Shown: positions 25,819-57,313 of the stretch, piece after piece
Position numbering within the stretch: the stretch's first letter is position 1
Layout of the letters: the number at the start of each line of letters is the position of its first letter
IMG/VR virus record: IMGVR_UViG_3300013014_000020
Coordinates: 51,295 to 115,294 of that record
Source: a virus
DNA: 64,000 nucleotides
Strand: one strand, 5' to 3'
Position numbers and translations under genes: made by a program
The notes under the pieces: model-generated
What the model was told of the DNA's origin: nothing
Databases searched by the model: none
The model's input: the letters and a program-made list of their open reading frames with translations, nothing else

Positions 25819-26445
25819 TTATTTTTGAAAAAATTTCTCAATTCTTTTACTTAATCTAACTCTTGGGTCATTTATTGTTCTACCAACATCTTCATATTTT
25901 AACACAAACCCAAAACTTAAAAAAACTCTTCTTGAATTGAATTCATTTGTCCAATGTTTATACAGAGAAGCTTCAAACCCATATAAATCAGATTCTTGTA
26001 TTTTAACCGACTCTTTATCCACATAAAAATCATAATCTTCTGACAACACACTGATGTTACATTTATAATTAACATACCCATCTATTGATGCGTCATAGTG
26101 AGGATTTATTTTTCCTCCTTTATTCATATCAACGGATTGTAAAAAAACATTATCTTTTGGAAAATTAAACTCTTCTGTTATCCTATCTATTATTTTATAA
26201 ATAAAATTAGGTAATGGTTCTTTTGAAACATCTGAAATTGATTGAAATTTTGTAATGTAACTAGTTAAAGGAGTGTTAGAAATATCAAACATATAAGATT
26301 TACCATTTAATGATTTGGATAACTCTGTAAGGTGATGATTACTATCATTCCCGGTATGGTTAATAGATTCAATCCAATTAACTATCTGATTTGACTCATC
26401 ATTTGTGATGAATTTTTTTATTATTTTATAATTTTCAGATTCCAT
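25819..26445 (-). CDS. 2OG-Fe(II) oxygenase (prolyl-hydroxylase-like fold)
   Basis: GG.INPHYD (HxD), H in LYKHW, distal R in SRRVFLSF. Confidence 0.75.
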   Translation of the reverse strand: MESENYKIIKKFITNDESNQIVNWIESINHTGNDSNHHLTELSKSLNGKSYMFDISNTPLTSYITKFQSISDVSKEPLPNFIYKIIDRITEEFNFPKDNVFLQSVDMNKGGKINPHYDASIDGYVNYKCNISVLSEDYDFYVDKESVKIQESDLYGFEASLYKHWTNEFNSRRVFLSFGFVLKYEDVGRTINDPRVRLSKRIEKFFQK

Positions 26446-27997: not shown

Positions 27998-29074
27998 TTA
28001 GTCAATTGGTAATCCGGACATATACCCAACAGTAATATCACTCCACCCTATACCAAATTCATGCTTCATAACTTTATCTACAACGACATATGATTCAAAT
28101 TGTGTTGTACCGGTACTAACATCAGAATTAATAAAAATACCACTTAAAAAATATACATCATTTGTAGTGTTTCCGGTTACTTGACTTGGTAAATTTGCAA
28201 TAATATAATCATAAGCAGAATCCCTGATAGTTTCCGTGGCAAATATCATTTGTTTATTATAAACCTCTTCAGTAGTTCCTGTGAATCCACTTAAAGTAGA
28301 TTTAAATGGCCATAAAATATCGGTCAATTTCCAAAAAGAATAATTTTCATTATTAAAAGGTGCGTTATTTTGATTTGGAGGTGAACTTAGTTGATTTACA
28401 ACTTGGTCAATTGCTCCCGCAACGGCACCACAGGTATTATCGGTTAAACTATTTGCCTTACCCCTTCTTAACATTCTACCTGAACGACCGTCTTCAGTAA
28501 CACCAATGTGTGGCGTACTTGTTACAAACAAGGTTCCACCAAGAGTTGTTGCTACGTGACTTGCAAATGCCCCAAATCCAACACTACCAACAAATGGATA
28601 ACCTGCCAATCCACCGGACATAAACGGCCCTAAAAACGAATTAATACTGGTTGGCCATCCACCGATATTTCCGGGTAAATATGCTGCATCAACGTCATCA
28701 GAACAAATACCTTCAGCTAAAACAATATCAGTTGATGGTATTCCTTCATTTGTAATATATTCTGTTGTGTATGTTCCCCATACTTCAGATAATACCGCTC
28801 CTGAGAATGGTTGGTATCCTCCGTCAACAGTAACAGTTCTTACTGTTTGAGTATATGCACTCTGACCTTCTAACGGTGCTGGTACAATTATTTCGTATGT
28901 TCTATCATATAATGGAACGTCTAATTCGTATGTTCCATAAGGATAACCCGAAATATTATTAAATGGTATTGTTTGAGTACCTAAGTCAACGGTTCCACCA
29001 GTTGTGGGTAAAAAAGTAACATTTGTCGTAAGTCCCGATAAATTTGTACTTGTTATTCTAATTCCTTGTATCAT
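27998..29074 (-). CDS. LCIB/LCIC-type (beta-class-like) carbonic anhydrase domain fused to an N-terminal virion-decoration module
   Basis: ICSDD, GPF.SGGLAGYPF.G..GFGAFASHV, PHIGV..DG..G...R.G, CGA; candidate Zn ligands Cys/His/Cys. Confidence 0.8.
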   Translation of the reverse strand: MIQGIRITSTNLSGLTTNVTFLPTTGGTVDLGTQTIPFNNISGYPYGTYELDVPLYDRTYEIIVPAPLEGQSAYTQTVRTVTVDGGYQPFSGAVLSEVWGTYTTEYITNEGIPSTDIVLAEGICSDDVDAAYLPGNIGGWPTSINSFLGPFMSGGLAGYPFVGSVGFGAFASHVATTLGGTLFVTSTPHIGVTEDGRSGRMLRRGKANSLTDNTCGAVAGAIDQVVNQLSSPPNQNNAPFNNENYSFWKLTDILWPFKSTLSGFTGTTEEVYNKQMIFATETIRDSAYDYIIANLPSQVTGNTTNDVYFLSGIFINSDVSTGTTQFESYVVVDKVMKHEFGIGWSDITVGYMSGLPID

Positions 29075-31756: not shown

Positions 31757-32302
31757 TTAGTAAATTATTTTATCATTATTTTCTGTGTTTAATACATCTC
31801 CATTTTCTGTTAATACATTGAATGTTTCAGGAATTGGTACGGGTTGTACACATATTGTTGTTGTGGTTCCTATAATAACTGGACTTGTATTACAACAAGG
31901 AAATTCACTAACATAACAATTATTATATTCTAACGAATCACCAATAAAACTTTCTTGTATATTAATATATAGTTTGTCTCTTAAAGGTAATATTAAAACA
32001 CCATCATCATTTCTAAATAAAAATTGTCCTTCATATCTACCAACTTTTCTTGTGTCTGTATTTGAAAACTGATAATAAACATAATATTCTGGTTCGGCAT
32101 TTGGGTCCAACATTTCTTTTGCGACAAATCCTGCTGGTCTTGTGATAATCTTTGGTATTCCAGTATCAATATCTACCATTGAAAAGAATATCGCAGATTC
32201 TTCAATAAGACTTGTCATTTTATTAAAATCACTTCTGCCATCTTTAACCACGGCCATCTTTAATAAAGGAAGAGTTGCGTTTTTCTTAATAAAGAATTCC
32301 AT
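31757..32302 (-). CDS. BppU-like / baseplate-associated structural protein
   Basis: F.IK.N.TLP.L, Y.F...DT...G.YEG.F pattern; C-terminal LTENG..L.TE motif. Confidence 0.5.
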   Translation of the reverse strand: MEFFIKKNATLPLLKMAVVKDGRSDFNKMTSLIEESAIFFSMVDIDTGIPKIITRPAGFVAKEMLDPNAEPEYYVYYQFSNTDTRKVGRYEGQFLFRNDDGVLILPLRDKLYINIQESFIGDSLEYNNCYVSEFPCCNTSPVIIGTTTTICVQPVPIPETFNVLTENGDVLNTENNDKIIY

Positions 32303-32329: not shown

Positions 32330-34000
32330 TCAACATTCTTTTCTTAATTCTGCACTATAAAAATCAAAACGGTTGTGCTCAGTTGGTGTGATAAGTAACA
32401 GTCCAGGTTTTAGATTACTTTTGACTGTTTCTTGGAAATTATAAGACATAAGTGTTTGTTCATATGGAAAATCAAATTTATTTTTTAAATAACATTTGTA
32501 GTTTCCTTCTTTTGACATAAGGATTGGCCAATTAGAAAGATAAATTTGTCCGCTAGCATATGGTACGCCTTCATATGATTTTATATTATTAAAAAGTAAA
32601 CAAGGAGCCTCTGGATCATAACCTTGCACTGGTAAGTTAGGTTTTTCTGGCCAGTGGTTTTGTCTAAACTCTTGTGGTACATTATACCAGGACCATTGTG
32701 TTTGATGTGAACCAAAAAATTCTGTAAAGTTCATTTTAAGAAAATCAAATTCTTCTGTCTTTAATATGTTTAGAGTTTTTGAAAAAAGGTTTTCTACATA
32801 TCGGTTAAACCCATTTTTACAAGTACCAGAATTTTTATTCACAAATAGCATATCATCCTCAAAGAAAAAATAATAACCCAAATCTTCTTCTTTGTTAAAA
32901 TGTTCGGCAATAAATTGTCTTCCACCGGTTATCCCAATATTATCTTTTTTAATGTGGTCAAAACCATATCTTAAACAAAGTTCATTATATTTTGGTGTTG
33001 TATTTAAATCCGTTGAATTATTTAATAAAAATTTCTTCGTTCCGTTAATAAAATTTGGGTCATAAAATAACATACTTTTTATTAGCGACTCAAACTGTGA
33101 TGGTGAGTTAAAACTTATAACATATAAGCCAACACCATTAGAATTTATGTTTGATTTTATAATTTTGTTTTTTTTATTTTTAATTACAAATGTATTATTT
33201 TTTACATCTTCAAAAAATTTATACATCAAACCATTTGATTCTATTTCACAATAATCAATCATTGATGGATAAAGATAAGTCATAATTGTAAAAATACTTT
33301 CTTCGGTTCCCATCAAATTTTTATTTAATGTGTCTATTAATAATTGGTAGTATAAAACATTTAAGTCAGCAATTTTTTGTTTTGTTCCACCAAAAAACCC
33401 ACCTCTTGAGACAAACTCTGTTTTTGTTTTTGCGTAGTCACACATTTTTTTATAATCAAATCCGTGCACTTCGTTTTCCGCTTCATAAGGAAAGACAACA
33501 AACATAAATTTATCAAATAAACTTTCTATTTTATCTAATACATTATCACGAGTAAAATACCCCAAATTAACCGTGTTAGTTAATCCGGCGTCTATCCAGT
33601 AAAGTTTTTCAGAATTAAAAGGATCCAAAATAGATGCGTCGTGTAGTAAAAACATTTTGGACATTACAAGTGGATTGTAATATTCTAATCTTGCTTGTGT
33701 TGATTCTTTTAACCAACCAGAAAGATTATACCAATTTTCATTTGTCCTTATTTTTTGAATTTTATCAAAGTATTCGTTATTTCTAAACCAAGATAAATTC
33801 CTATTAATAAATTTTGTATTGTTTGGGTTTCTATACTTGAATACAAATTCCTCTAATTGTTTATCACCAAAAATAATTAAGTTACAATCTATTTGTAATA
33901 ACTCTTTAAATTTTTCTAAATAATAATCAAAAGATCTATTCCACCCTTCATTTAGGTTACCCCTACCAATATCCCATAAACCTGTAACTAATGTTATCAT
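32330..34000 (-). CDS. HtrL/YibB(WlaTC)-like glycosyltransferase fused to a GT-A domain
   Basis: TLVTGLWDIGR, Y...MSK..L..A....PF....YWIDAG, GGFFGG, GTEE; second domain with FFEDD. Confidence 0.7.
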   Translation of the reverse strand: MITLVTGLWDIGRGNLNEGWNRSFDYYLEKFKELLQIDCNLIIFGDKQLEEFVFKYRNPNNTKFINRNLSWFRNNEYFDKIQKIRTNENWYNLSGWLKESTQARLEYYNPLVMSKMFLLHDASILDPFNSEKLYWIDAGLTNTVNLGYFTRDNVLDKIESLFDKFMFVVFPYEAENEVHGFDYKKMCDYAKTKTEFVSRGGFFGGTKQKIADLNVLYYQLLIDTLNKNLMGTEESIFTIMTYLYPSMIDYCEIESNGLMYKFFEDVKNNTFVIKNKKNKIIKSNINSNGVGLYVISFNSPSQFESLIKSMLFYDPNFINGTKKFLLNNSTDLNTTPKYNELCLRYGFDHIKKDNIGITGGRQFIAEHFNKEEDLGYYFFFEDDMLFVNKNSGTCKNGFNRYVENLFSKTLNILKTEEFDFLKMNFTEFFGSHQTQWSWYNVPQEFRQNHWPEKPNLPVQGYDPEAPCLLFNNIKSYEGVPYASGQIYLSNWPILMSKEGNYKCYLKNKFDFPYEQTLMSYNFQETVKSNLKPGLLLITPTEHNRFDFYSAELRKEC

Positions 34001-35241
34001 AAATCACCAACTAGTCTATCACACCAACCTTTTGATTTTGAATGTGGCCATACAACCCAATACTTCGGTTTTTCTTTTGCGTTAAACTCCCTCCATATTT
34101 TTCCATAACCGTCGGCATCTGTTTTTATTCTTTTGATTTCTTCTTCTTGTGCGTCCATACGATAAATTGTTTCATCTTTATCGTTATGAAATGCAACAAC
34201 TAAAAAATCATAATCGTCTTCTGGTATTTTATCTAATGGGACATCAATACAATGTTTAAATATTCTTAAAAAACTTTCTTTCCATTCTTCTTCGTTTTTA
34301 TAATCATATGGGTTTGGTGGATAATTTTTATCTATTGTATATTGTTGTACGGATCTTTTCTCAAAAAGAACACCAGAATATTTTTCGTAATCACCAACTG
34401 TCCTCACATTTCCAAAACCATATTTTAATTCACCATCATATTTTTCACCATCAACCCCCAAAACTTTTCTGTTTTTACTATGTGAACTTTCATTTTTCTT
34501 ATACCATACACTATCATCATCCCACTGTTTTGTTCTACCTTTTCTTGTGTATTCGTGATAAATAACAATTTTATGTGGATGGAATAAATCATATCCGTGC
34601 GTGTAAGCACGAACAGCAATTGATATTTCTTCTCCGTGAAAATAATATTCCGGATCATGCTGAACCTCAACTGAAAATTCACCTAACGTGAAACAAAAAT
34701 GCGCCGAATAAAATCTTGCTGGGATTGGTTTTTGCAACTCTTGCCATCCTGGTATTACTTCTGGTAAAAAGAAAACAACACCTTCTGGTGTAAATCTATC
34801 AAAGACCATTCTCCACGGCTCTTTAACTCTTCCTTGTGGGTCATTTTCTGGGTCAAAAGAAGAAACATATCCTGTTAATAATGGTTTTTTATATCCATCT
34901 TCTTGCAATTCCTTTAACATTTTAATTAAAGTTTCATCCCAATTAGGTTCAAAACGCATATGAGAATCTAATTGTAACGTGTATGTTTCACCACTATATA
35001 ATTGTTGGACTTGATGTCTTGCCCAACAAACACCGGTTGATTCTGTGTACGGTATATTTAAAATTCTAAAACGATTATCATTTTCATATTCAATTAAATC
35101 ATCAAACTTATCATCTGAATGAAATTGTCTAGCAATACCTAATCTTAAATTTTCTGGGTATTTTGCCTTATCCAACATATCTTTAATTGTTGGTATAAGT
35201 TGGGGGTCTCTATAAGACGCGATTTGTATAAATATTGTCAT
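33997..35241 (-). CDS. GT60-like polypeptide/hydroxyproline alpha-GlcNAc transferase (Gnt1-like)
   Basis: IFIQIASYRD, GVCWAR..Q.LY.GE.Y.LQLDSHMRF...WD, P.L..Y, F.GEE, H.Y.R, G..RT..DYE..SG. Confidence 0.85.
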   Translation of the reverse strand: MTIFIQIASYRDPQLIPTIKDMLDKAKYPENLRLGIARQFHSDDKFDDLIEYENDNRFRILNIPYTESTGVCWARHQVQQLYSGETYTLQLDSHMRFEPNWDETLIKMLKELQEDGYKKPLLTGYVSSFDPENDPQGRVKEPWRMVFDRFTPEGVVFFLPEVIPGWQELQKPIPARFYSAHFCFTLGEFSVEVQHDPEYYFHGEEISIAVRAYTHGYDLFHPHKIVIYHEYTRKGRTKQWDDDSVWYKKNESSHSKNRKVLGVDGEKYDGELKYGFGNVRTVGDYEKYSGVLFEKRSVQQYTIDKNYPPNPYDYKNEEEWKESFLRIFKHCIDVPLDKIPEDDYDFLVVAFHNDKDETIYRMDAQEEEIKRIKTDADGYGKIWREFNAKEKPKYWVVWPHSKSKGWCDRLVGDL

Positions 35242-35257
35242 AATTAGTTAAAAATAA

Positions 35258-35476
35258 CTAACACTGATAAAAATTAAATATTTCACAATTGTTTGAATCA
35301 ATAAGTTTTACAAGTAACGAACCCACGTTATTTAATGGTTGTGGGACATCAAAGATATATGTGGAAATATACGTACCTCCAGAAACTAAATAACAATAAG
35401 TGTTTGTAATATCACAAACATACACATCGTAAGGGGGGTTTCCTGTAACACCGGATATTGTTATTTGGTTTGTCAT
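35258..35476 (-). CDS. Small Cys-containing beta-sandwich decoration-like protein
   Basis: 72 aa; ITISG.TG.PPY.VYVCD...C and K.IDSNNC. Confidence 0.55.
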   Translation of the reverse strand: MTNQITISGVTGNPPYDVYVCDITNTYCYLVSGGTYISTYIFDVPQPLNNVGSLLVKLIDSNNCEIFNFYQC

Positions 35477-35495
35477 ATTTTATATTTCTAACGAC

Positions 35496-35879
35496 TTAAA
35501 AACTTAACAACTCATACAACAAAGAAAAAGCAATACCAAAAAGAACTCTGGATATCATAACACTAAATAAACACATTAATTGTGTTGAGCAAGGTAAAAA
35601 GATAAAAAAGATTCCCCCAAATATAAAAAAGGTTCTTAATAATTTAAAAAGGTGCCACCCGTCAGTTAAACCAACTAACAATGTTTTTGAAAATAAAAAT
35701 TTACGACCTAACGTTGGGTCTCCGTCTTTATACTTATTTCTCCAAGAAATACTTGGATCCCAAAAAAGTTTATTTTTTAACTTAAAAAAATATGACGAAC
35801 CATAGTGAAACTGCAAGGTGTCCATTACGGCTTCGCACATCCCAGCGATTATAAAAAATAAAAAACCTAAATATATCAT
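35496..35879 (-). CDS. Membrane protein
   Basis: Three hydrophobic segments; A.MDTL..H, W.P..SW.NKY and TDGWH motifs. Confidence 0.65.
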   Translation of the reverse strand: MIYLGFLFFIIAGMCEAVMDTLQFHYGSSYFFKLKNKLFWDPSISWRNKYKDGDPTLGRKFLFSKTLLVGLTDGWHLFKLLRTFFIFGGIFFIFLPCSTQLMCLFSVMISRVLFGIAFSLLYELLSF

Positions 35880-36073
35880 TTTGATTCTTTAATAAAATTT
35901 ATATACCAAACAATAGAGGCGATAAGTCCTCCATAACAAGTAATAAAAACCATAATTTTTAAATATAGGTTATCCAAATAACCATCCATTAACCAAGATG
36001 GGTATAAAACTGACCCAACTAAAAATAAAATGATTAATAACCAAGAAGAAACGTGTAATTTAAAATTTTTCAT
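35876..36073 (-). CDS. Small two-TM membrane protein
   Basis: Two hydrophobic stretches; ATGA overlap with the next gene; preceded by TATTTAT. Confidence 0.55.
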   Translation of the reverse strand: MKNFKLHVSSWLLIILFLVGSVLYPSWLMDGYLDNLYLKIMVFITCYGGLIASIVWYINFIKESK

Positions 36074-36137
36074 AACCTTTTATTTAATAAATATCACATT
36101 AGTTAATAACCAACAAATTTAAAAAGTATTTATTATT

Positions 36138-36686
36138 ATGGATAATAAATTAAAAAATCTAAAATTAGATTTGTTGTTAAAAGAATTAAAACTTTTGGAT
36201 TTGGAAAGGGAGTATGTTGATGAGTTTACAAAACATTACAGACCAATTTTTATGCAGGAATTAACTAAAAACGGTTACAAGGCACAAGTAGTGTCTGGAG
36301 AAACTTTAAATACATCAATTAAAAAAGAAAATAAAATTAATGCTGATGAGAATGAATTAAAAACTATAAAAAATATTTTTAGAAAAATTGCTAAGGTATC
36401 TCATCCAGACAAAACTAAAAATATTTATAAAAATAAATTATATGATGAAGCTCAAATTGCTTACGATAAAAATAATTTATTAGTCCTTTATAAAGTAGCA
36501 AAAAAACTAAATATTGATATTGAGTTAAATGTTAGTAATTTACTACTTATAGAAAAAATAATTAGTGATGAAAAAAAGGAATTGTCGTCCGTTGAAACAT
36601 CCTTTTTATGGATATGGGCTAACACAGAATCACAAGAAAAAAAAGACGAATTAATAAACCAATTTATAAAAAAACACGGGGAATAG
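36138..36686 (+). CDS. J-domain (DnaJ-like) protein
   Basis: LKTIKNIFRKIAKVSHPDK (HPD motif) followed by Y..A..AY. Confidence 0.75.
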   Translation: MDNKLKNLKLDLLLKELKLLDLEREYVDEFTKHYRPIFMQELTKNGYKAQVVSGETLNTSIKKENKINADENELKTIKNIFRKIAKVSHPDKTKNIYKNKLYDEAQIAYDKNNLLVLYKVAKKLNIDIELNVSNLLLIEKIISDEKKELSSVETSFLWIWANTESQEKKDELINQFIKKHGE

Positions 36687-36688
36687 TT

Positions 36689-37873
36689 ATGAAAATAGGA
36701 ATAACACTTGGACTTAAAGATAATCAAGAATCTATATGGACAAACGGAATAAAACAAAACGTTTTGATGTTAACACATCTTTTAAAAAACTCAGAAAAAA
36801 ATTATGATGTCTGTATTTTAAACTCTATGAATATAGATCTTACAGAAAAACCTTCATATCTTGATGGAGTTGATATTCACTACTTTAACGATAAGTTCTT
36901 AGAGATGGATTTATTAATTGTAATGGGCGCTCAAATATTTGATTACCAACTTGAGACATTTAAAAAATCTGGACCAAACAAAAAAGTAGTTTCATATAAG
37001 TGTGGAAATAATTATGTTATTCATATGGAAAACATATTATTTAAACCGAGTGAAGATAAAAAATTCCAATATGAGAGACAATATGATGAAGTTTGGTATG
37101 TACCACAACAAGATGAAGTAAATTCAGGTCTTTACAAAACATTATATCGTACAAATGCCTTTGCTGTCCCTTTTATTTGGTCAGAAAAATTTTTATTTGA
37201 ATCAGTTAGAGAAATCCATAAAGGATTTAAGGAAGGAAAATACACTAAAGACTGGCAGTATGATGCAACAAAAGAAAAAAAGATTTTGGGTATTATGGAA
37301 CCGAATTTGAATATTGTTAAATTTTGTTTAATTCCAGCGATGATTGCAGAAGAATCATATAGAACTATTGAAGGACGACGACATATTGAAAAACTTAGAA
37401 TTACAAATGCTACCACCGTTTCAAAACATAAGGAATTTATGTCTATAATTCAAACATTTGACTTGTTTAAAGAAGGTAAGATAAGTGCTGAATCACGTTA
37501 TCAAACGGCGTATATGTTGACACAACATTTAGATGTATTGATTTGTCATCAGTTATTAAATCCCCTAAATTACTTATATTTAGATGCCGCTTATTTAGGG
37601 TATCCGGTATTACACAATGCCCCAATGTGTAAAGATTTGGGTTACTATTATGAAGGTTCAGATACGGTTGAGGCATCTAAAATATTAAATTATATTTTAA
37701 CTAAACACGATAAAAACATAGATGAGTACAACGAAAAAAACGATAAAGTATTACAACGATATCATATAGACAATCAAGAAGTGGTTAAAACATACGATAT
37801 GTTAATTGAGAACTTATTTAATGGGGGAAATAAGGATTTAGTATATGACCCAATGACCAATTTATACAAATAA
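36689..37873 (+). CDS. DUF2827-family putative glycosyltransferase
   Basis: SIWTNGI.QN, CGNNY, W..PQ, VPFIWS, EPN..VK..L.P, HQ..NPLNY.Y.D....GYP..HN, LGYYY. Confidence 0.8.
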   Translation: MKIGITLGLKDNQESIWTNGIKQNVLMLTHLLKNSEKNYDVCILNSMNIDLTEKPSYLDGVDIHYFNDKFLEMDLLIVMGAQIFDYQLETFKKSGPNKKVVSYKCGNNYVIHMENILFKPSEDKKFQYERQYDEVWYVPQQDEVNSGLYKTLYRTNAFAVPFIWSEKFLFESVREIHKGFKEGKYTKDWQYDATKEKKILGIMEPNLNIVKFCLIPAMIAEESYRTIEGRRHIEKLRITNATTVSKHKEFMSIIQTFDLFKEGKISAESRYQTAYMLTQHLDVLICHQLLNPLNYLYLDAAYLGYPVLHNAPMCKDLGYYYEGSDTVEASKILNYILTKHDKNIDEYNEKNDKVLQRYHIDNQEVVKTYDMLIENLFNGGNKDLVYDPMTNLYK

Positions 37874-37892
37874 AACAATTTAATATAAATGT

Positions 37893-37925
37893 AAAAAGGG
37901 ACTCTTTCGAGTCCCTTTCTTTTTT
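37893..37925. terminator. Bidirectional intrinsic terminator
   Basis: AAAAAGGGACTC-TTTC-GAGTCCCTTTCTTTTT between convergent genes. Confidence 0.85.
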
Positions 37926-37942
37926 GAAAGTTAATCTAACGA

Positions 37943-40405
37943 TTAATACATACCGTAAACAGCAACTTTATCACCTGTTCTAGGAGCAGAAATAAATGTT
38001 ACTGAAGTTGTTGTAATTGTATAATCACCAGCATCTTGTAATAAACCATTCAAGTAAACTGCTTGTGAACCTGTTCTAAGTTCGTTATTGAATGTGAATT
38101 CAGTAACAACACCATTAGCAGTTTCAACTACACCAGCATTTCTAAAATAGATATTAGCAAAATCATCAGCTAATGACAATTCAGCGCTTTCCGCTCTAAC
38201 TACCTCAGTTGACAAGTTAGCAACGATTTCAGTAAATGAATCAATTTCAGTTACGTCGATGTTAGATATCAAGTAAGAAACTTGAGTTGACAATTCTGTA
38301 GCAATTGAATCTTCAGCGTTTTCAGCTCTTACTATCTCAGAAGATAATGCAGTTTCCAATGATCTGTCAATAAATACTCTGGCAGACGTTTCAGTAAATA
38401 AATCATCCTCTAAACTTGCATCAGCATCTTGACGGTTGCTAATTTCTCTATCTATAGCAAATTCTCTAGTTGAAACTTCAGTAGATAAATCAGCTATGAT
38501 TGAATAATCCGCAACAACTCTTCTACTAACTTGAGTTGATAATTCAGTAGATAAACTCGTATCAGCATCTTGACGTGCGTTAGCTTCAGAAGATAAATCA
38601 GACTCTAAACTTGCATCAGCATATGCACGTGCGTCAGCTTCATTATTGATTTCTAAACCAATTGATGTAACCGCAGATAACAATGCGTTATCGTTCTCTA
38701 AATCAATTCCATTAACGAACTCAACGATTTCAGCAAATTGATCTAAATCAACTTCAGAACCATCAAGAATAGCATCAATACGTCCTTGTTCTACAGATAC
38801 TGCAGACGCTAAAGATTGGTCAGCTGCTAAACGAATAGACGCTTCATTATTGATTGCAGTTCCTCTGTTAGAAACTTCAGTAGATAAATTGTTAGTCAAT
38901 ACTAACTCAGCACTCATTGCTCTTGACTCTTCAGCATTAACGTCAGCGATTCTGTTAGAAACTTCAGTAGATAAATTGTTAGTCAATACTAACTCCGCAC
39001 TCATTGCACGAGACTCTTCAGTATCAACATCAGCGATTCTGTTAGAAACTTCAGTAGACAAATCACCTCTTAATACCGCTTCAGCACTAGTTGCACGTGA
39101 TTCCTCAGCATCAACATCAGCTATTCTGTTAGAGATTTCGGTAGACAAGTTAGCAGTAATAGACGCATCAGCAGAAACTCTATCAGATTCTTCGTTTCCT
39201 ATAGAGGTTTCCAATGAAGCATCAGCAGCAGCACGAGCATTCTCTTCAGTATTCACACGTTCTGACAATGAAGTATCAGCAGAATTCATAGTTGAAGTCA
39301 ATTCGGAAACTTCAGCAATTCTTTCTGAAATTTCAGTAGATAATGCAGCATCAACAGATGAATTAGCTATTGATAAGTCAGTTGAAATTTTACCTTCTAA
39401 ACTTGTGTCAGCATTTTCTCTGTTTAACGTTTCAGTTGATAAATCAGACGCTAATGAATTATCACCAGCAATTCTTGCAGATACTTCAGTAGATACAGCA
39501 ACTTCTCTGTTAGCAACTTCAGTTGATAAGTTAGCAGCAACAGAAGCGTCACCAGAAATACGAGCAACTTCTTCTAAAGATACTGCAGCAGTTCTATCAA
39601 CAACTTCAGTTGATAAGTCAGATGCCAAAGATTGGTCAGCAGCAAAACGAGTTGATGCTTCAGCAGATGTTGCGATAGATGCGTTAGTTGCAAGTTCAGT
39701 AATTGCACCATCTAATTCACCATCCATTGATTGGTAAGCAGCAACGATTTCAGTTAATGAATCTAAAGCCGCTGGATCTGTGTTTGAAATAACATAGTTA
39801 ACTTTAGCATTCAATGAAGTTTCAGCAGATTCTGCTCTTGCGATTTCAGAAGATAAATCAGTTTCTAATGAAAGATCAGCCGCGTTCATTGCATTTTCTA
39901 AACTCTCATCACCAACAACTCTTAAAGACGCTTCAGCATCAATGTTGTTTTGTAATGATTGTTCAGCTACCATTGCACGAGATTCTTCAGCATCAACATC
40001 AGCTTCTCTGTTAGCAACTTCAGTAGATAATGCAGTTGCAATTGAATTATCACCAGCAATTCTGTTAGACACTTCAGTAGATACTGCAGCTTCACGGTTT
40101 GTTACTTCTGTAGATAATTTAGTCGCGATTGAGTTATCACCAGCGATTCTGTTAGAAACTTCAGTAGATACTGCTGCTTCACGATTTGCAACTTCTGTAG
40201 ATAAGTTAGAAGTGATTGATTGGTCACCTAAAATACGATTAGATACTTCAGTTGACATTTCTAATGATACGTTAGTATCAATTGATGCAACTGTAGATGT
40301 CAAACCTGAGACATCCGTCATCACTAAACCTGTTGGTGTGGTGATGGTTGCGTTTGTAAGGATTAAGTCCGACTGTCTGTCTAAGACTATTCTAGTATTC
40401 GCCAT
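37943..40405 (-). CDS. Long coiled-coil fibre protein with LSTEVSNR repeats
   Basis: About 29-aa periodicity (87-bp offset duplications near 38870/38957); three LDS/QxxEIV knuckle motifs; C-terminal VYLNGLLQ..DY domain shared with the 40936 ORF. Confidence 0.75.
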   Translation of the reverse strand: MANTRIVLDRQSDLILTNATITTPTGLVMTDVSGLTSTVASIDTNVSLEMSTEVSNRILGDQSITSNLSTEVANREAAVSTEVSNRIAGDNSIATKLSTEVTNREAAVSTEVSNRIAGDNSIATALSTEVANREADVDAEESRAMVAEQSLQNNIDAEASLRVVGDESLENAMNAADLSLETDLSSEIARAESAETSLNAKVNYVISNTDPAALDSLTEIVAAYQSMDGELDGAITELATNASIATSAEASTRFAADQSLASDLSTEVVDRTAAVSLEEVARISGDASVAANLSTEVANREVAVSTEVSARIAGDNSLASDLSTETLNRENADTSLEGKISTDLSIANSSVDAALSTEISERIAEVSELTSTMNSADTSLSERVNTEENARAAADASLETSIGNEESDRVSADASITANLSTEISNRIADVDAEESRATSAEAVLRGDLSTEVSNRIADVDTEESRAMSAELVLTNNLSTEVSNRIADVNAEESRAMSAELVLTNNLSTEVSNRGTAINNEASIRLAADQSLASAVSVEQGRIDAILDGSEVDLDQFAEIVEFVNGIDLENDNALLSAVTSIGLEINNEADARAYADASLESDLSSEANARQDADTSLSTELSTQVSRRVVADYSIIADLSTEVSTREFAIDREISNRQDADASLEDDLFTETSARVFIDRSLETALSSEIVRAENAEDSIATELSTQVSYLISNIDVTEIDSFTEIVANLSTEVVRAESAELSLADDFANIYFRNAGVVETANGVVTEFTFNNELRTGSQAVYLNGLLQDAGDYTITTTSVTFISAPRTGDKVAVYGMY

Positions 40406-40636
40406 AAAATGGGTTTTAAAAAATTATTTATAAAAATGTGTTCTTTTACACCAAAAAACCTTAACACTAGGTTTTAAGTTTGTTGATAAATAGTATACCA
40501 GAATACCTCTTTAAGAAAAGTATTCTTTAATATAAATTTTTTTATGTGGATAAATATTAGATATTAATAATTGTTAGGAAGAACCCTAAACTTGTTTTCA
40601 TATAAATATATTAATAATTCTAAAAAGACTAAAAAA

Positions 40637-40873
40637 TTATAAATTATATAATAAATTTTTTAAATTCTTAATTGAATTGGTATATAAAAGTGGATCACAA
40701 GACCCTCTCTCATTTAAATAATCGTTAACATTTAACATTAAATCCTCTGTTTTATCAAAAACAAAGACCACTCGGTTTTTGCTTTTTTCAACCCTCATTT
40801 TAAAACTTTTTAACCTTAAAAAGGCAGATAAATATAAATCACTTGTTTTGTATTCTAATTCTTGCTCCATCAT
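40637..40873 (-). CDS. DUF5659-like small putative DNA-binding protein
   Basis: Y.TSDLYLSAFL...F.F...Y......K.LK pattern. Confidence 0.6.
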   Translation of the reverse strand: MMEQELEYKTSDLYLSAFLRLKSFKMRVEKSKNRVVFVFDKTEDLMLNVNDYLNERGSCDPLLYTNSIKNLKNLLYNL

Positions 40874-40935
40874 TTTTTATTTACTATTATAAATATGTTA
40901 ATATTTTAGGTTGTGCCAATTTTATAAAAATTTTT

Positions 40936-41721
40936 TTAATAAAATCTATATGAACAAGTAATTTTACTCCAAGAAGTTGGGGCAAGATTAAATGTTATAG
41001 TTTTTCCGTTTATGGTGTAATCATTATTTTCACCAGGATCTTGTAGAAGACCATTTAAATATACGTGATCGCTTCCAGGTTTTGGTAGTGTGCTAAGCTC
41101 AAAAACTTTATTTATTCCGTCAATACCCCCAATCGGATTTTCGTGGTCAATAAAGTTTATTTCACTATAAGTTCTGTAAGTACATAATAATTTACTACCT
41201 ATTTTTGGTGGTTCATTAAATGTTATTGTTTTTCCAACTATTAAATAATCTAATTGTTCACCTTTGTCTTGTAAAAGACCATTATAAAATAAATGTTCTG
41301 AATTTATTTCAGGTGTGAATCTTAATGAAAAAACTTTATTTACACTATCTATGTTTCCAGATATTAATTCTCTATCAATAAACGTGGACGCATTAACTCC
41401 CGGTATTAATAAATTGTCACGTAAATTATTTAAAACCTCTAATTGTGTTGATGATAAAAAAAAGATTTCTTCCCAATCCAAAATATCAAAAGACCAAAAA
41501 TTATTTTTGAGTTTAAAGTACTTTGATCCCCCATTTACACCAACAATCATTCCAGGCCTTCTTCTATCATAAGAAATAAGGTCTAAATCAGATTCTTGGT
41601 CAACATTTCTTAACCCATCTACTCCATACAAAGGATCGGTAACAGCATAGGTATCTAAAGTATCCATTGGCGAAATGAACCCCATAATACCAACACCACC
41701 AATCTTACTAAAATCGGACAT
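40936..41721 (-). CDS. Structural protein with two tandem GxIDGxNKxF...YLNGLLQ...DY.I.G.TITF domains
   Basis: Internal duplication visible in the translation. Confidence 0.65.
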   Translation of the reverse strand: MSDFSKIGGVGIMGFISPMDTLDTYAVTDPLYGVDGLRNVDQESDLDLISYDRRRPGMIVGVNGGSKYFKLKNNFWSFDILDWEEIFFLSSTQLEVLNNLRDNLLIPGVNASTFIDRELISGNIDSVNKVFSLRFTPEINSEHLFYNGLLQDKGEQLDYLIVGKTITFNEPPKIGSKLLCTYRTYSEINFIDHENPIGGIDGINKVFELSTLPKPGSDHVYLNGLLQDPGENNDYTINGKTITFNLAPTSWSKITCSYRFY

Positions 41722-41747
41722 CTACATCAAAAATATACATATATTAT

Positions 41748-43484
41748 TTATTCACATAACCATATATCTACCTCAGCATTTGTTGAGACATATGTTCTAT
41801 ATACTGAATAAATAGTTAAATATCCAAAATTGTCAATTAAAGAAACGTCTGGTTTAGAAATAATTGGAATAACAAATCCGTTACATCCTGAATTACTATT
41901 TCTAAATATTGATGGTTGTGGCATTGATTTAGGTATTAATATATAGATATAACCAATTCCATTTGAAACTGTTAAATTAAGATCTATTGATGTTGTTATA
42001 TCTAATTTTATTAATGTTGATACGTCATTAGTTGTTAAATTTGAGTTTTGTATTTTTCCATAATAAATCACAGGAGCTGGAGGAGGACTTGATGTTGGTG
42101 TTGGTGTGTTTGTTGGTGTAGGAGTATTTGTTGGTGTATTTGTTGGTGTATTTGTTGGTGTATTTGTTGGTGTTGTCGTAGGAGTTGGGGTATTAGTTGG
42201 GGTTGTCGTAGGAGTTGTTGTTGGAGTATTTGTTGGTGTATTTGTTGGTGTTGTCGTAGGAGTTGGGGTATTAGTTGGGGTTGTCGTAGGAGTTGTCGTA
42301 GGAGTTGTTGTTGGAGTAGGTGTATTTGTAGATGTTATTGTAGGTGTTGGAGTATTAGTTGTTGTTGGAGTTGGGGTATTAGTTGGGGTTGTTGTTGGAG
42401 TAGGTGTATTTGTAGATGTTATCGTAGGCGTTATTGTAGGCGTTATTGTAGGTGTTGGAGTATTAGTTGGGGTTGTTGTTGGTGTGTTTGTCGGAGTAGG
42501 GGTATTAGTTGTTGTAGGTGTAGGCGTAGAAGTATTTGTTGGAGTAGGTGTAGGGGTATCTGTAGAAGTTACCGTTGGTGTGCCTGTAGGCGTAGGAGTA
42601 TTTGTAGGAGTAGGTGTAGGCGGGATATTTGAAATTATATTAACTGCATACTCAACATCCAAATCCACATTTAACACGCGAGTATTTTCTAAACAATTTT
42701 GGTCTGATAACATATTAAAGTCATAATCTAAAATGACTTCTGTAAATCCACTTACCGATCCTAAAGGTATTGTAATTTGCTTGGTAACAACCATTCTTTC
42801 ACCATCTAAAGAAACTAATACACAATCATACTCAACAGTACTATCCACATCAAGAGGTATATTATATCTAACAAATGACTGTAATATAACCGAACCTGGA
42901 ACAATATATTGATCAATTAAAACTTGTAAAACTGTTGGGGATGGTGATGCAGTCGGCGTTTGTGTTGGGTTACATTCCGGAGTCTTTGTAGGTGTAGGAG
43001 TATTGGTTGGTGTTTGTGTCGGTGTCGGAGTCTGGGTAGGAGTATTAGACGGTGTAAAGTTTGGAGGCAAAGGCGTTACACACAAATTCCAAGTAGGAGT
43101 TGGTGTTGGCGTAGGTGTCGCTGTTGTTGTTGCTGTCGGAGTGTTTGTTGGTGTAGGAGTCTGTGTAGGTGTTGGCGTATTAGTAGGAGTCTGTGTTGGA
43201 GTTCTTGTAGGTGTTGGAGTTGGTGTTCTTGTAGGTGTATTTGTCGGTGTTGGTGTAGGAGTTGGTCTTGGTACGTTTAAAAAGTTTGTACAACTACCAC
43301 CATCTGTTGATATTGTGTATGTTCCGTAAATTTCTTGTTGTGGTGTTAATAAATCTGGCTGGAAAGTATATGGAAGTATAACAAAACCAATATTTATAGT
43401 GATATTACTATTATCTGGTTTGAATAGTATTTGGGCGCTTTCACCGCTAAAATTAACACTTTGTATTGTAATTATCTGACTCAT
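41748..43484 (-). CDS. Mucin-like Pro/Thr-repeat virion decoration protein
   Basis: Two TPTPT/TNTPT tracts separating three globular modules. The N-module resembles the 27998 N-terminus; the middle module resembles the sheath insertion. Confidence 0.8.
42075..43265 (-). repeat. Pro/Thr low-complexity coding repeats (two tracts, about 42075-42625 and 42950-43265)
   Basis: Codon-level repeats of ACA/ACT and CCA/CCT. Confidence 0.9.
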
Positions 43485-43515
43485 TGTATATTTTTATAAA
43501 TACAATCAAACAGAC

Positions 43516-43719
43516 TTATTTTTTAATTTTAATCATTTTATACCAAGCTCTTTCGTGTATAAAATAAATAAAAGGTTTAATTAATAGTTCACCCAAACCA
43601 ATTAAAGATGAAACCTCTATTGATGCACCAAGTAATAACGCGGTTCCAATTGTTGTTAATGTTGCAAAAAATCTATAAGTCAAAGTTTTTAATATGTGTC
43701 TTTTTAAATCAACCTGCAT
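43516..43719 (-). CDS. DUF2061-family small membrane protein
   Basis: RH..KT..YR...T and K...Y..HER.W motifs. Confidence 0.8.
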   Translation of the reverse strand: MQVDLKRHILKTLTYRFFATLTTIGTALLLGASIEVSSLIGLGELLIKPFIYFIHERAWYKMIKIKK

Positions 43720-43730: not shown

Positions 43731-44549
43731 TCAAAAATAACCCAATTGATCATAGAACCATTGATGTTTTTGTTTTATCCAGTTACATGCTGGCACCCCA
43801 AGGACTTCTTTGTAATCTAATTTTAATGGTTCTATTTTTGATTTAATTGTGTGATCACCATAAATTCCATATACAGAATCATCTTCTTGTGTTATCTGTT
43901 CTACATTATTAAAATCGTGTTCGTAGTATGGTAGTTCTAAATAATTGTAGATTCTTTCCATTTCCTTTTTTGGGTTTGATGTAAAATCCTCAAACTTAAC
44001 AAACAAAACTTTTGTGTTAATACCTTCTTTAAACATTTGGTACAACCTCTCAATAGCAAGACCAACTGGTTGTGATTGAGCCCAAACATCAATTCTTTTT
44101 TCTGTTGTTGTTCCTTGCATTTGCGCGTGGTTTACAACACCAGAATCCATATGTTGACTTTTTCTAAAATTCTTTTCCATTGATGCAAAAATTCCACGTA
44201 AATCCCTTACCATACAAATAATTTTTGGTTCTGGATAAAAAGAATTTAAAAATCCGTAATGAATACCCCAACCTCTACTTTTATCTAAAACGTATGGTTT
44301 GTCTGTTACACCATTAAAAAAACCGGTAACACCTTGATTACAAAAGTTTAAAAACCCTTGTTTCATCAATTCCGAATCTTGTGCTTTAAATTCTGGTGAT
44401 GTAGTGTAATTTGCTCTTGCGGCATATACTAATTCTAAAACACCAGATGTTGGTGTTACATAAAAATCTGGATTTTGACCCATTACATTTTGAAGCAATG
44501 TTGACCCTGCTCTTGGTAATGAGCTTTGAAAAAATATTTTTTGTACCAT
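43731..44549 (-). CDS. Sulfotransferase family protein
   Basis: SLPRAGSTLL (5'-PSB loop), DKSR.W, MVRD...I..S (3'-PB), V.FEDF..NP. Confidence 0.88.
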   Translation of the reverse strand: MVQKIFFQSSLPRAGSTLLQNVMGQNPDFYVTPTSGVLELVYAARANYTTSPEFKAQDSELMKQGFLNFCNQGVTGFFNGVTDKPYVLDKSRGWGIHYGFLNSFYPEPKIICMVRDLRGIFASMEKNFRKSQHMDSGVVNHAQMQGTTTEKRIDVWAQSQPVGLAIERLYQMFKEGINTKVLFVKFEDFTSNPKKEMERIYNYLELPYYEHDFNNVEQITQEDDSVYGIYGDHTIKSKIEPLKLDYKEVLGVPACNWIKQKHQWFYDQLGYF

Positions 44550-44552: not shown

Positions 44553-45437
44553 TTAATTTTTTAGTGATTCGATTATTTCGTTTACATTAAAGATGTTTGT
44601 ATCAAATAAAGGACATTCGTGTATTGTACCATTAAAGCTGTAATCAAATAAATAGCTATCTGGTAACTTAACGGTTGTTGGTAATTCAGCGATAATGTTT
44701 GTGTGTAATGGATAACCAAATACTTTTGGTGATGTTCCAATCCACAATATTGTTGACGGCAGACCCATAGCGGCGGCTGCATGTTGTAAACAAGAATCAA
44801 TTAATAATCTTTTTTGAGCATAAGCTAATAGTGAAAATAATTCCATATTAGACATTGATTCCGTATGAGCTTCTACGTTTTGTAAAATATTAGTTTGATC
44901 CCTACATATTTGGATTATGTGATAATATTGTGAAAAGTGATCAACAATTTTTTGTGCAACATCAAAAGGAATATCTCTTGTCCAAGAATATGGATAAGGT
45001 TGTTCTTGTAATGGACCACCGTTTGTTTGAATAACCATTACAGGTTTATCACGTTTCCATTTATTAAATGCAACTTGTTGTTGTCTTAAATTAAATGAAA
45101 GTGCTGGCATTTCACCATTATATTCTAAACCAAAAAGTTTACACCAATTCATAATTAACGGTAACTTTTTTTGAATGTGGTCTGTTGTAAAATAAGGTTC
45201 GTGTTTAAAAATTAAACTATCTTTATCTTTAATGTAATCATCATAGAAATATGGTGTCATACCAATTCTATATACTCTATCAACAAAATCTAAATTTAAA
45301 AATATTTCTGGATACGCACAAACAATAATTAATTCTCTATCTGGATGATTATTTTTTATACATTTTGCAACAGCAGTTGATAAAACGTGTTTTCCTAAAC
45401 CACCCTCAAGGTGAAAAATACTATATTTTTTTTCCAT
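44553..45437 (-). CDS. GT9 (heptosyltransferase-like) GT-B glycosyltransferase
   Basis: EGGLGK, IDSCLQHAAAA.G.P...LW..T.P..FGY. Confidence 0.75.
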   Translation of the reverse strand: MEKKYSIFHLEGGLGKHVLSTAVAKCIKNNHPDRELIIVCAYPEIFLNLDFVDRVYRIGMTPYFYDDYIKDKDSLIFKHEPYFTTDHIQKKLPLIMNWCKLFGLEYNGEMPALSFNLRQQQVAFNKWKRDKPVMVIQTNGGPLQEQPYPYSWTRDIPFDVAQKIVDHFSQYYHIIQICRDQTNILQNVEAHTESMSNMELFSLLAYAQKRLLIDSCLQHAAAAMGLPSTILWIGTSPKVFGYPLHTNIIAELPTTVKLPDSYLFDYSFNGTIHECPLFDTNIFNVNEIIESLKN

Positions 45438-45456: not shown

Positions 45457-46371
45457 TTAATTATTTGTAAATGCGATTGTTTTATTTATTTCATCTATTA
45501 CCATATCCGGTGTTATTGATAAATGACATTCGTTTTCTCTATCTGTTCCCAAAAATATTGGGCATTTAGTTTTTATGTTTGGGAACATATTAAAACATCC
45601 ATTACAAACATATGGGTTTGTGACTCTAAAACAATCAAATTCATTTTGTCTTTTTGTGAAATTTGAAATCATAACCACCGGAACATCATAAGCCCAGGCA
45701 AGCCAAGAAAGTCCAGACGATAACCCAACAAAAAATCTTGAACTAACAATATGATTAATTGCAACATTTATATCATCGTGTCCGTGAAAATCTTTTACAT
45801 TTTGTAAATTCATTGTGTTTTCATAAGAAACATTATAAACATTATAACCACCATTATGTAATGAATTAACAACTTCTTGCCAACCACTGGTTCCACCATA
45901 ATTCCATTGTGAAATTTCCTTAATCGTTTCTGGACCGATTGTAACTTTATTTGGGTCTACTGTTCTTAATTTTGGAATTACCGGACACTTACCTGGTTTT
46001 GTGTCTTGTGGAAGTCTCATTGTATCTTTAGCAGCATAAAACATCCCGCCTAAAGTGTGTGCCATATTATTTTTATCATACCCAACATCAACTAGTTTAT
46101 CTATTTCTAAAAAACCACTTTCATTTGCATTTATAAATTCATAATCCGGTCTTTTTGATTTTAAAAGATGTGGAAAAAATGTGGTTATCCAAACGTATTT
46201 TGGTTTATGATAATCCATAAATGCATCGATTAATGATGAAAAACAAATTGTATCACCCAAACAGAATGAGTCAAAATGTAATAATAATTCTTTTCCTTCA
46301 AAGTTTTCTAAGTTAGGGTCTCTTTCTTTATAGTTCATCAACTCAGAATTGTCGTAATGTCTTTTAACCAT
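45457..46371 (-). CDS. TibC/AAH-like autotransporter strand-loop-strand O-heptosyltransferase (BAHT family)
   Basis: LGDT, W...GWQEVV..L...GY, FFVGLSSGLSWLAWA..VPVV.IS.FT...EF, CxxC...CP...EC..IT (four-Cys metal motif). Confidence 0.85.
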   Translation of the reverse strand: MVKRHYDNSELMNYKERDPNLENFEGKELLLHFDSFCLGDTICFSSLIDAFMDYHKPKYVWITTFFPHLLKSKRPDYEFINANESGFLEIDKLVDVGYDKNNMAHTLGGMFYAAKDTMRLPQDTKPGKCPVIPKLRTVDPNKVTIGPETIKEISQWNYGGTSGWQEVVNSLHNGGYNVYNVSYENTMNLQNVKDFHGHDDINVAINHIVSSRFFVGLSSGLSWLAWAYDVPVVMISNFTKRQNEFDCFRVTNPYVCNGCFNMFPNIKTKCPIFLGTDRENECHLSITPDMVIDEINKTIAFTNN

Positions 46372-47107
46372 TTTTATATTTTAAAAGTTTAGAGTAATAT
46401 TCAAACCAATATCTTTCTTGCCAAATTGTTCCTTCTTCCAAATAAACTAATGGTTTTTTTTGCCAAGGTTTTTTTACAATGTAGTGTAAAATCTTAATAT
46501 GTTTTGGGAGTCCTGTGTTTTGAAATATTTCTTTTGAATATGTTTTTAAATAATTGTACGATACTGGTATTTCAGTTATATCATCGTAAAAATAATTATT
46601 TATGATGTCCTGGTCAAGATGTTCTGTAATACCATAGATTGTTGTAAGATGTATTAAATCATTTGTAATTTTTTCTGATAAGTACTTTTTTGAGATTACT
46701 AATACACCAGTGTTATATTGATCAATGTATAAGTCTCTAACACCACCGATATCACCATCAAAGTCAATTAGATAATCAATGTTTCCTAAAATAACAACAT
46801 CGGAATCTAAAAATATAATTTTGTTAAATTCAATTAATGAAAAAATTTCGTATTTGGTGTAATCACCAAAAGACATTTGTTTTTCTTTTAGTTTTTCTAT
46901 TTCAGAATATTTTTCGGTGTCAAATCTTTTTATGTGTATATTGTTATAAATTTTTCTTGATGTGACTAAATCTTCTGGTGTTAAATCATTTGTTATGATT
47001 ACAAATGGTAAACTTTCACTAACAACTCTTGGGTTGTTATCAATTAACGATTTTAACATTACCTCAAATCCTATGAGATAATCTTTATTACATACTGTTA
47101 CAAACAT
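46364..47107 (-). CDS. GT8 (glycogenin-like) glycosyltransferase
   Basis: FLDSD, NTGVL, DQD.IN, YN, HY..KKPW. Confidence 0.85.
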   Translation of the reverse strand: MFVTVCNKDYLIGFEVMLKSLIDNNPRVVSESLPFVIITNDLTPEDLVTSRKIYNNIHIKRFDTEKYSEIEKLKEKQMSFGDYTKYEIFSLIEFNKIIFLDSDVVILGNIDYLIDFDGDIGGVRDLYIDQYNTGVLVISKKYLSEKITNDLIHLTTIYGITEHLDQDIINNYFYDDITEIPVSYNYLKTYSKEIFQNTGLPKHIKILHYIVKKPWQKKPLVYLEEGTIWQERYWFEYYSKLLKYKNG

Positions 47108-57261: not shown

Positions 57262-57313
57262 CTTTTTTATTAATAAATACAACAATCCAAAGTATTTATA
57301 TTAAAACTATTTT

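Follow-up and report, generated by a model that had tools for sequence, protein, structure and literature searches.

The 64,000-nucleotide stretch of DNA analyzed here, which we call the window throughout, spans positions 51295-115294 of the 115 kb virus record IMGVR_UViG_3300013014_000020 (IMG/VR), whose G+C content is about 31%. Its minus strand carries a gene for a glycosyltransferase of family GT60 (33997..35241) and a gene for a protein rich in proline and threonine (P/T; 41748..43484). An earlier reading of the window, hereafter the original prediction, had taken these to be a two-gene pair for eukaryote-style, mucin-type O-glycosylation of phage structural proteins through portable P/T linkers. 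The record is judged 39% complete. Since it contains DNA polymerase and tail sheath genes, and since relatives with the same GT60 include contigs of 250-320 kb, three of them 97-100% complete, its source is an uncultured jumbo tailed phage; a megablast search of the region against phage records returned no match.

The GT60 enzyme and its HtrL-like partner

The 414-aa product of 33997..35241 consists of a GT-A catalytic part (aa 1 to ~300) containing a DSH motif, followed by a conserved beta-rich domain (aa ~326-413). The motifs noticed originally are found in its translation as IASYRD (aa 7-12), DSHMRF (aa 92-97), and HGEE (aa 202-205), and residues D12, D92, S93, H94, R96, H202, G203, E204, and E205 are invariant across 27 GT60 homologues with 60-93% identity. 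We presume that DSH and HGEE correspond to the DxH-type metal/nucleotide-sugar motif and the (W/H)GxE-type motif of GT27. The PF11397 (GlcNAc) profile, which we take to be equivalent to CAZy family GT60, matches the protein with 233.4 bits (cut-off 21, E 7e-69) over profile positions 1-44 and 97-351, and the phage family phrog_24687 matches it over its full length (5e-164). The protein is a genuine GT60/PF11397 family member.

Sequence and profile searches of the PDB with the GT60 protein detected no relative, and we therefore turn for its fold to an AlphaFold model built from the 27 homologues, which is confident (pLDDT 86.1, pTM 0.83). The solved folds nearest to this model, with which it shares its fold at a sequence identity of 10-17%, are the mucin-initiating polypeptide GalNAc-transferases (ppGalNAc-Ts) of GT27, in support of the proposed relation to ppGalNAc-Ts. 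In the model, the fold starts at residue 3, leaving no signal or membrane anchor; the enzyme is therefore predicted to be soluble and cytoplasmic. Metagenomes contain more than 7000 close homologues, all of them unnamed, and our literature search found no paper on GT60/PF11397 in phages or on the function of prokaryotic GT60.

Directly coupled to this gene is a second one: the start of an HtrL/YibB-like gene (32330..34000, minus strand; 556 aa; PF09612, 3e-21; TIGR02192, 5e-20) overlaps the GT60 stop codon as ATGA. Alignment of its homologues shows an HtrL domain with an invariant WxDxG motif in the N-terminal half, and a "YVITFNSP" strand with an invariant EDDM (DxD-type) motif in the C-terminal half. 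Judging by these motifs, both halves may adopt a GT-A fold, and we propose that the protein is an extender transferase. The PDB yielded no relative to sequence or profile searches, comparing the profiles of the HtrL-like and GT60 families revealed no relation, and a Pfam scan of the isolated C-terminal half gave no match. In place of the predicted pair of enzyme and P/T protein, the core of the locus is GT60 together with a two-domain HtrL-like protein, set within a larger variable island.

Threonine/proline tracts and modular handle proteins

The P/T-rich protein (578 aa; 41748..43484, minus strand) is modular, and comprises an N-terminal module of 72 aa that we call the N71 handle, a P/T tract, a middle domain (aa ~183-281), a long P/T/N tract, and a C-terminal domain (aa ~471-578). 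Its P/T tracts lie at aa 71-133, 147-169, and 287-469; the 282 tract residues, which include 142 Thr, 83 Pro, and 25 Asn, confirm the long TPTPT/TNTPT tracts of the original prediction. The tracts are encoded by mixed codons (ACA, ACT, ACG, and ACC for Thr; CCA, CCT, and CCG for Pro) over DNA repeats that are degenerate (periods of 12-108 nt, 62-94% match), and their composition is therefore kept at the protein level. Such a composition cannot be due to chance; it also accounts for the GC-skew spike at 42001-44000. Pfam has no family for any domain of the protein, including when its three nonrepeat domains were scanned in isolation, and none of its domains matches a virion family. A match to phrog_15511 falls within the low-complexity tract and was discounted.

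Further tracts occur in six large ORFs of the record, and the genome also has pure poly-Thr tracts. The shorter P/T linkers reported originally were each found in their place: PPTPSPNPTP (nt 320-350) and KPPPTPAPSPIPPTPSPSPIP (nt 1770-1845) in the ORF ending at 5000, PTPTPAPLPSPTPS at aa 366 of ORF 54430..57285, and TTTTTT (aa 302) and PVTTTTTVPP (aa 420-431) in the tail sheath (9651..13307, minus strand; 1218 aa), whose identity is supported by phrog_23 (1.6e-55). Sheath families match only aa 921-1215 of the latter, and its N-terminal ~900 aa consist of extra domains split by the poly-Thr linkers at aa 302 and 420. The ORF ending at 5000 had been labeled as baseplate, which its sole match, a weak one to OmpA, does not confirm. 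No signal peptide was found in the phage P/T proteins.

Using BLAST and iterated hidden Markov models (HMMs), we defined three N-terminal handles, N71, o72, and o181N. N71 spans aa 1-72 of the P/T protein, and a second copy forms the first 65 aa of a 358-aa protein (27998..29074, minus strand; 9e-21 with an HMM from N71 homologues); the handle is therefore a portable module. The o72 handle stands alone in the window as a 72-aa ORF directly upstream of GT60 (35258..35476, minus strand); related phages have it at the N-terminus of P/T-rich proteins that reach 1792 aa. The third handle, a beta-sandwich, makes up the first 140 aa of a 181-aa protein, o181, directly downstream of the HtrL-like gene (31757..32302, minus strand); in relatives, it precedes P/T tracts and the distal domains that also occur in the window's P/T protein. 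No pairwise similarity was detected between o72 and N71. The handles are followed by P/T tracts and then by a common pool of distal domains: in one protein of a related phage (locus L018), o181N is fused to counterparts of the window P/T protein's middle and C-terminal domains, and the N71, middle, and C-terminal domains are all conserved and reshuffled among relatives. This reshuffling supports the earlier view of the P/T tracts as portable linkers between swappable domains. Outside the window, on the plus strand of the same record (G000:C1:5106-6403), a 73-aa copy of o72 ends exactly at the start (5327) of a 358-aa ORF with three poly-Thr tracts; the two may be a single gene that is split by a frameshift or read through.

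In relatives, the o72 and o181 homologues that flank the enzymes often extend into proteins as long as 1792 aa, whose P/T tracts reach 594 aa. Of 109 unique handle proteins, 63 (58%) have a tract of 10 aa or more, versus 32 of 819 other ORFs of at least 150 aa (4%), counts that overstate independence since the loci are related; among the 72 handle proteins that extend past the handle, 63 have a tract. As to what the handles attach to, the best fold matches of the o181 handle are baseplate proteins (the N-terminal domain of TP901-1 BppU and related proteins), a weak resemblance, and a language-model search gave a separate, weak pointer to BppU_N (0.84). These matches suggest, but do not prove, that the handle proteins are anchored to the virion. 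PHROG scans of seven large handle or fibre relatives gave matches only to families of unknown function.

Conservation of the enzyme pair in related phages

GT60 is encoded at 60-94% identity by 131 viral contigs, of which we examined 80; these phage loci are phylogenetically related to one another. The GT60, HtrL-like, and 181-aa genes are present in 80, 79, and 67 of the 80 loci, respectively. In 78 loci, GT60 and HtrL bracket between 0 and 9 ORFs of at least 100 aa (mode two), and the cassette genes that we sampled there encode methyltransferases (FkbM, CmcI, FtsJ-like) and transferases of GT2, RXYLT1, GT10, GT7, GT25, PLOD, and GT34 types. Thus, two conserved enzymes frame a variable slot for what appears to be glycan elaboration.

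A cultured phage, Xanthomonas phage XacN1, shares this arrangement. It has orthologs of GT60 (ORF334, 46% identity) and of the HtrL-like protein (ORF330, 41% over the full length), which bracket a carbamoyltransferase and two small ORFs, and the module adjoins GT9, the 3313-aa ORF325, and baseplate wedge genes. Its genome contains 16 TPTPTPT-coding tracts, as compared to 0 for the reversed pattern, and several large proteins carry them. Along AP018399, the tracts lie in ORF232-237, six tandem paralogous hypothetical genes (124048-133104), in ORF325 (203370-213311), and in the 2823-aa ORF384 (272200-280671). The virions of XacN1 show at least two Schiff-positive glycoprotein bands, for which its authors suggested ORF328 and ORF334 as the makers (PMC5852040). 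XacN1 differs from the window phage in that its GT60 groups with homologues from Pseudomonadota, its cassette is another one (carbamoyltransferase), and its tracts are short and not adjacent to the enzyme, with no long tract in the GT60 neighborhood; moreover, the Schiff-positive bands are not tied to named proteins.

Both in XacN1 and in the clade of the window phage, the GT60 module lies near a DNA polymerase gene. Phage DNA glycosyltransferases are well known, and this location might be read as a sign that GT60 glycosylates the bases of phage DNA as a defense against restriction. We know of no GT60 member that acts on DNA, the family goes unmentioned in a recent survey of DNA-glycosylating phage enzymes, and the island contains no maker of a hydroxylated base. 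As such a function would also leave the linkage to (Thr-Pro)n, or (TP)n, proteins unexplained, we can hardly credit it.

Pairing of GT60 with (TP)n proteins in bacteria

GT60 is a large family, with 4715 representative clusters at E <=1e-3, many of which have 2-4 tandem GT60 domains. Among 80 loci from bacterial bins, an HtrL homologue lies within 6 kb in 32, and an ORF with a P/T tract of at least 40 aa is present in 12. The partners fall into different types. Small proteins in which a twin-arginine-like leader precedes (TP)n are the partners in Halieaceae, Alteromonadaceae, Verrucomicrobiota, and Jiulongibacter. Marine gammaproteobacteria and a Verrucomicrobia bin have such proteins directly ahead of HtrL-GT60(-GT60) operons (L145 1524-6274, L133 2816-7224, L116 9543-10247), and in two of these genomes the (TP)5 tract there is the sole one. 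In Burkholderiales, the partners are VgrG-like proteins that carry at their C-terminus a (TP)n tract as long as 131 aa; VgrG-like proteins from Ralstonia, Achromobacter, Paraherbaspirillum, and Trinickia, whose C-terminal (TP)n tails measure 40-131 aa (L123 8270-11134, L125 11052-13091, L110 9900-12389, L141 12619-13107), lie a few kb from GT60 homologues that have no C-terminal domain.

We searched five whole bacterial genomes, picked for having a tract near GT60, for (TP)5-coding DNA. In a 3.6 Mb Alteromonadaceae genome, the only match is in an ORF that overlaps the start of an HtrL-GT60-GT60 operon. A 4.2 Mb Congregibacter genome likewise gave just one, located two genes upstream of HtrL-GT60. 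In a 12.8 Mb Saprospiraceae bin there were 45, all of them in the two ORFs that immediately precede GT60, and in a Verrucomicrobia bin 6 of 11 matches fall within the GT60 locus. The fifth genome gave no (TP)5 match, its tract being shorter. The weight of the bacterial pairing rests on the tracts being unique in their genomes. On sequence grounds, GT60 and (TP)n proteins occur together far more often than chance would allow, both in phages and across unrelated bacteria.

This recurrence bears on two alternatives to a virion glycosylation system. P/T linkers can serve as extended spacers without any sugar, and the tracts could be unglycosylated spacers that sit near GT60 through co-inheritance of a hypervariable accessory region, the acceptor of GT60 being elsewhere. 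Indeed, the phage loci are related by descent, 33 of the 80 have no ORF with a tract of at least 30 aa, and the XacN1 neighborhood is likewise devoid of one. We nevertheless hold this to be very unlikely, as the pairing recurs in different phyla with different partners, where the tracts are the sole ones in the genome. The other alternative accepts that GT60 is tied to P/T proteins and places its targets among nonvirion proteins of host or phage, in or on the infected cell (secreted, surface, or takeover factors). The bacterial partners, being twin-arginine-like small proteins (L116, L133, L145) or VgrG-like proteins (L110, L123, L125), are not phage parts, and the domains of the window's P/T protein match no virion family. 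The phage P/T proteins, on the other hand, have no signal peptides, are surrounded by sheath, fibre-like, and baseplate-like genes, and share their handles with many large fibre-like proteins; with the baseplate matches of the o181 handle and the glycoproteins in XacN1 virions added, targets of this kind seem quite unlikely to us.

To place the phage enzyme among its homologues, we used a quick maximum-likelihood tree of 96 of them, which is unrooted, includes no protist sequence, and contains some low-GC "Saprospiraceae" contigs that are probably binned phage. The window GT60 falls in a supported set (96%) of phage contigs and Bacteroidota (Saprospiraceae, Leadbetterellaceae, and Chitinophagaceae), with Gemmatimonadota next out, and the GT60 of XacN1 belongs to another set, supported at 100%, together with Burkholderiales and a Verrucomicrobia bin. 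The pattern suggests that the host of the window phage belongs to Bacteroidota, and that GT60 has been exchanged between phages and bacteria more than once. By this tree, the phage GT60 is of prokaryotic stock. Of the phylogenetic check envisaged originally, this tree covers the prokaryotic and phage homologues, and in it the grouping is with Bacteroidota; placement relative to the eukaryotic enzymes lies beyond a tree without named protist sequences. The term "eukaryote-style" holds as far as resemblance goes, in a family with thousands of prokaryotic clusters in which the phage enzyme groups with Bacteroidota homologues.

The surrounding gene island

Several genes around the enzyme pair and the P/T protein point to further glycan chemistry. 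Between them lies a DUF2827 gene (36689..37873, plus strand; 394 aa; PF10933, 5.2e-99; no PDB sequence match), followed by a fibre-like protein of 820 aa (37943..40405, minus strand) that consists almost wholly of "LSTEVSNRIAGDNSIA"-type repeats and has a DUF4183-like C-terminal end. In loci L017 and L018, this repeat protein travels with DUF2827 and a DnaJ-like ORF. Downstream of the P/T gene is o261 (40936..41721, minus strand; 261 aa), which has weak PHROG matches (4e-10 to 1e-5) to families of virion structural and tail fibre proteins and is probably a fibre-type protein; its relatives are 500-2500 aa long, and the synteny between the P/T protein and o261 is kept in them.

On the other side of the P/T gene, a small DUF2061 membrane protein (43516..43719, minus strand; 67 aa; PF09834, 8.9e-14) is encoded directly beside a sulfotransferase (43731..44549, minus strand; 272 aa; PF13469, 4e-20; PF00685, 3.9e-11; and a weak NoeE-like match, 1.7e-6), an adjacency that hints at sulfation of a glycan; relatives have two further ORFs of ~150 aa there. 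Next come a weakly GT9-like protein (44553..45437, minus strand; 294 aa; PF01075 at 6e-4, below the cut-off; no PDB relative), a relative of the TibC/Aah protein O-heptosyltransferases (45457..46371, minus strand; 304 aa), and a GT8 glycosyltransferase (46364..47107, minus strand; 247 aa; PF01501, 3.8e-25). The TibC-like protein matches TibC (PDB 4RAP) at 2.4e-18 over aa 133-297, with GLSSGLSWLAWA; with TIGR04414 it scores 8.5e-36 and 123.7 bits, under the 200-bit equivalog cut-off, so that we call it a relative and not an equivalog. It lies one gene away from two ORFs of more than 1000 aa with beta-roll/adhesin-like repeats (47192-50473 and 50540-54316), with which it may form a second, separate protein-glycosylation pair.

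With such a gene content, the island might instead remodel a glycan of the host envelope (lipopolysaccharide [LPS] core, O-antigen, or capsule), for example to block superinfection, and the P/T proteins would then be unrelated neighbors with plain flexible linkers. GT8, GT9-like, GT25, and HtrL/YibB proteins are families known from LPS and lipooligosaccharide core loci, the cassette differs between close relatives in the manner of serotype loci, and a comparison of jumbo phages has read variable glycosyltransferase clusters as diversifying the outer polysaccharides of the host (PMC7824862). Yet the characterized GT60 members and the nearest folds all act on polypeptides, and we found no phage-encoded lipid-carrier initiator or flippase (host lipid A-core is still a possible target). 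Envelope remodeling also leaves unexplained why sole genomic (TP)5 tracts lie beside GT60 in several bacteria, why tracts are enriched in the flanking handle proteins (58% versus 4%), and why the island contains a TibC-like protein glycosyltransferase. We therefore consider it unlikely.

Proposed glycosylation of appendage stalks

Taken together, we favor cytoplasmic O-glycosylation of Thr in the P/T stalks of phage appendage proteins, to which we assign a probability of roughly 60%. Acting in the host cytoplasm while the phage proteins are being made, GT60 would start the chain on Thr of (Thr-Pro)n and poly-Thr tracts with a sugar that is probably a HexNAc donated by a UDP-sugar. The translationally coupled two-domain HtrL-like protein would then add the next sugar or sugars, and variable enzymes would elaborate the glycan: in the window phage, the DUF2827, GT8, GT9-like, and sulfotransferase proteins, and in relatives, the methyltransferases and GT2/7/10/25/34-type transferases inserted between GT60 and HtrL. 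The TibC-like enzyme may separately modify the neighboring repeat fibres. The acceptors would be proteins built from a handle (N71, o72, or o181N), a P/T stalk, and swappable distal domains, with 41748..43484 as the largest that this phage encodes; the sheath and other large proteins have shorter P/T linkers that may be used as well. As the handles probably dock these proteins on the particle, the outcome would be glycosylated stalks on virion appendages, and any benefit might lie in protease protection, stiffening, masking, or adhesion. For the P/T protein, a virion location is weakly indicated, by the modular handle architecture and by the weak baseplate-anchor fold signal on a sister handle.

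For the acceptor residue, there is an alternative in which the prolines of the tracts would be hydroxylated first, after which GT60 would add GlcNAc to hydroxyproline (Hyp), as on Skp1. GT60 includes the Hyp-specific Gnt1 (PMC6939170), and a metagenomic protein of 2461 aa (P0007) combines four GT60 domains with an AhpC/TSA domain and two 2-oxoglutarate (2OG)-Fe(II) oxygenase domains, and may thus be a fused hydroxylase-glycosyltransferase. In the window itself, ORF 25819..26445 (minus strand; 208 aa) is a candidate 2OG-Fe(II) oxygenase, based on an Atlas language-model similarity of 0.96 and an HxD...H...RxS pattern seen by eye. However, neither this record nor any of three relatives that are at least 97% complete has PF13640, for which three control genomes gave matches, although a hydroxylase encoded by the host is conceivable; the candidate ORF matches nothing in Pfam or NCBIfam and is missing from the same three relatives, which keep GT60; and the genome has pure poly-Thr tracts, in which there is no proline to modify. 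For these reasons, Thr is the more likely acceptor, and we regard the Hyp option raised originally as highly improbable.

A bolder version of the proposal, to which we give somewhat less than even odds, is that GT60 and the HtrL-like protein form a general, undescribed prokaryotic system for cytoplasmic, mucin-type O-glycosylation dedicated to (Thr-Pro)n. Its bacterial targets would be small exported proteins and VgrG-like spikes, and jumbo phages would have acquired it on two or more occasions, from the phyla of their hosts. In these phages, the slot framed by GT60 and HtrL would then act as a serotype-like cassette that rapidly diversifies the glycan coat, methylated or sulfated in some phages, of baseplate-anchored, handle-docked stalks.

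Chloroviruses, mimiviruses, and a few mycobacteriophages are established cases of viruses that encode the glycosylation of their own particles; to our knowledge, this has hardly been explored in phages of Gram-negative bacteria. If the proposal is correct, lake jumbo phages of a very abundant group equip themselves with mucin-like glycosylated stalks by means of a soluble initiator enzyme, and this would bear on the protease resistance of phage particles, their avoidance of recognition, and their sticking to surfaces. It would also provide the first function for prokaryotic GT60, in a setting where many bacteria carry the same GT60/HtrL enzyme pair, and a simple combination of cytoplasmic enzyme and (TP)n tag that could be used for glycoengineering in bacteria. 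With XacN1 and Jiulongibacter sediminis as cultured carriers, the idea is directly testable.

Comparison with known glycosylation systems

Among the closest known counterparts are the GT60 enzymes of protists, namely the Trypanosoma cruzi polypeptide alpha-GlcNAc-transferase, which acts on mucin Thr, and Gnt1 of Dictyostelium and Toxoplasma, which acts in the cytoplasm on Hyp of Skp1 and is followed by a two-domain bifunctional extender (PMC6939170). The phage enzyme belongs to the same Pfam family with a high score, and likewise is a predicted soluble GT-A enzyme with a DxH-type motif; the succession of Gnt1 and a two-domain extender resembles the phage pair of GT60 and the two-domain HtrL-like protein. 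In contrast to its protist counterparts, the phage GT60 groups with a Bacteroidota lineage, has an extra conserved C-terminal beta domain, and is accompanied by no conserved prolyl hydroxylase; its partner is HtrL-like, whereas the protist partner is GT2/GT74. The animal and apicomplexan polypeptide GalNAc-transferases of GT27, at 10-17% identity, are Golgi membrane enzymes with a ricin-type lectin domain.

Among phages, virion glycosylation has been described for the mycobacteriophages Che8, Corndog, and Myrna (Freeman et al. 2023, as cited in PMC12363180), where, according to that citation, the phages bring their own transferases, which glycosylate their virion proteins in the cytoplasm of the host, as we propose here. 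An F1-cluster phage genome lists an HtrL/YibB protein beside its glycosyltransferases. As far as is visible from PMC12363180, the enzyme families are different ones, the hosts are Gram-positive, and the sugars go on proteins of the capsid and tail tube instead of P/T stalks of modular appendage proteins. Finally, the autotransporter O-heptosyltransferases TibC and Aah are cytoplasmic enzymes that glycosylate repeat-rich fibrous proteins, and the product of 45457..46371 matches most of their family profile, including GLxSGLSWLAWA, but falls under the equivalog cut-off and has a shorter N-terminus.

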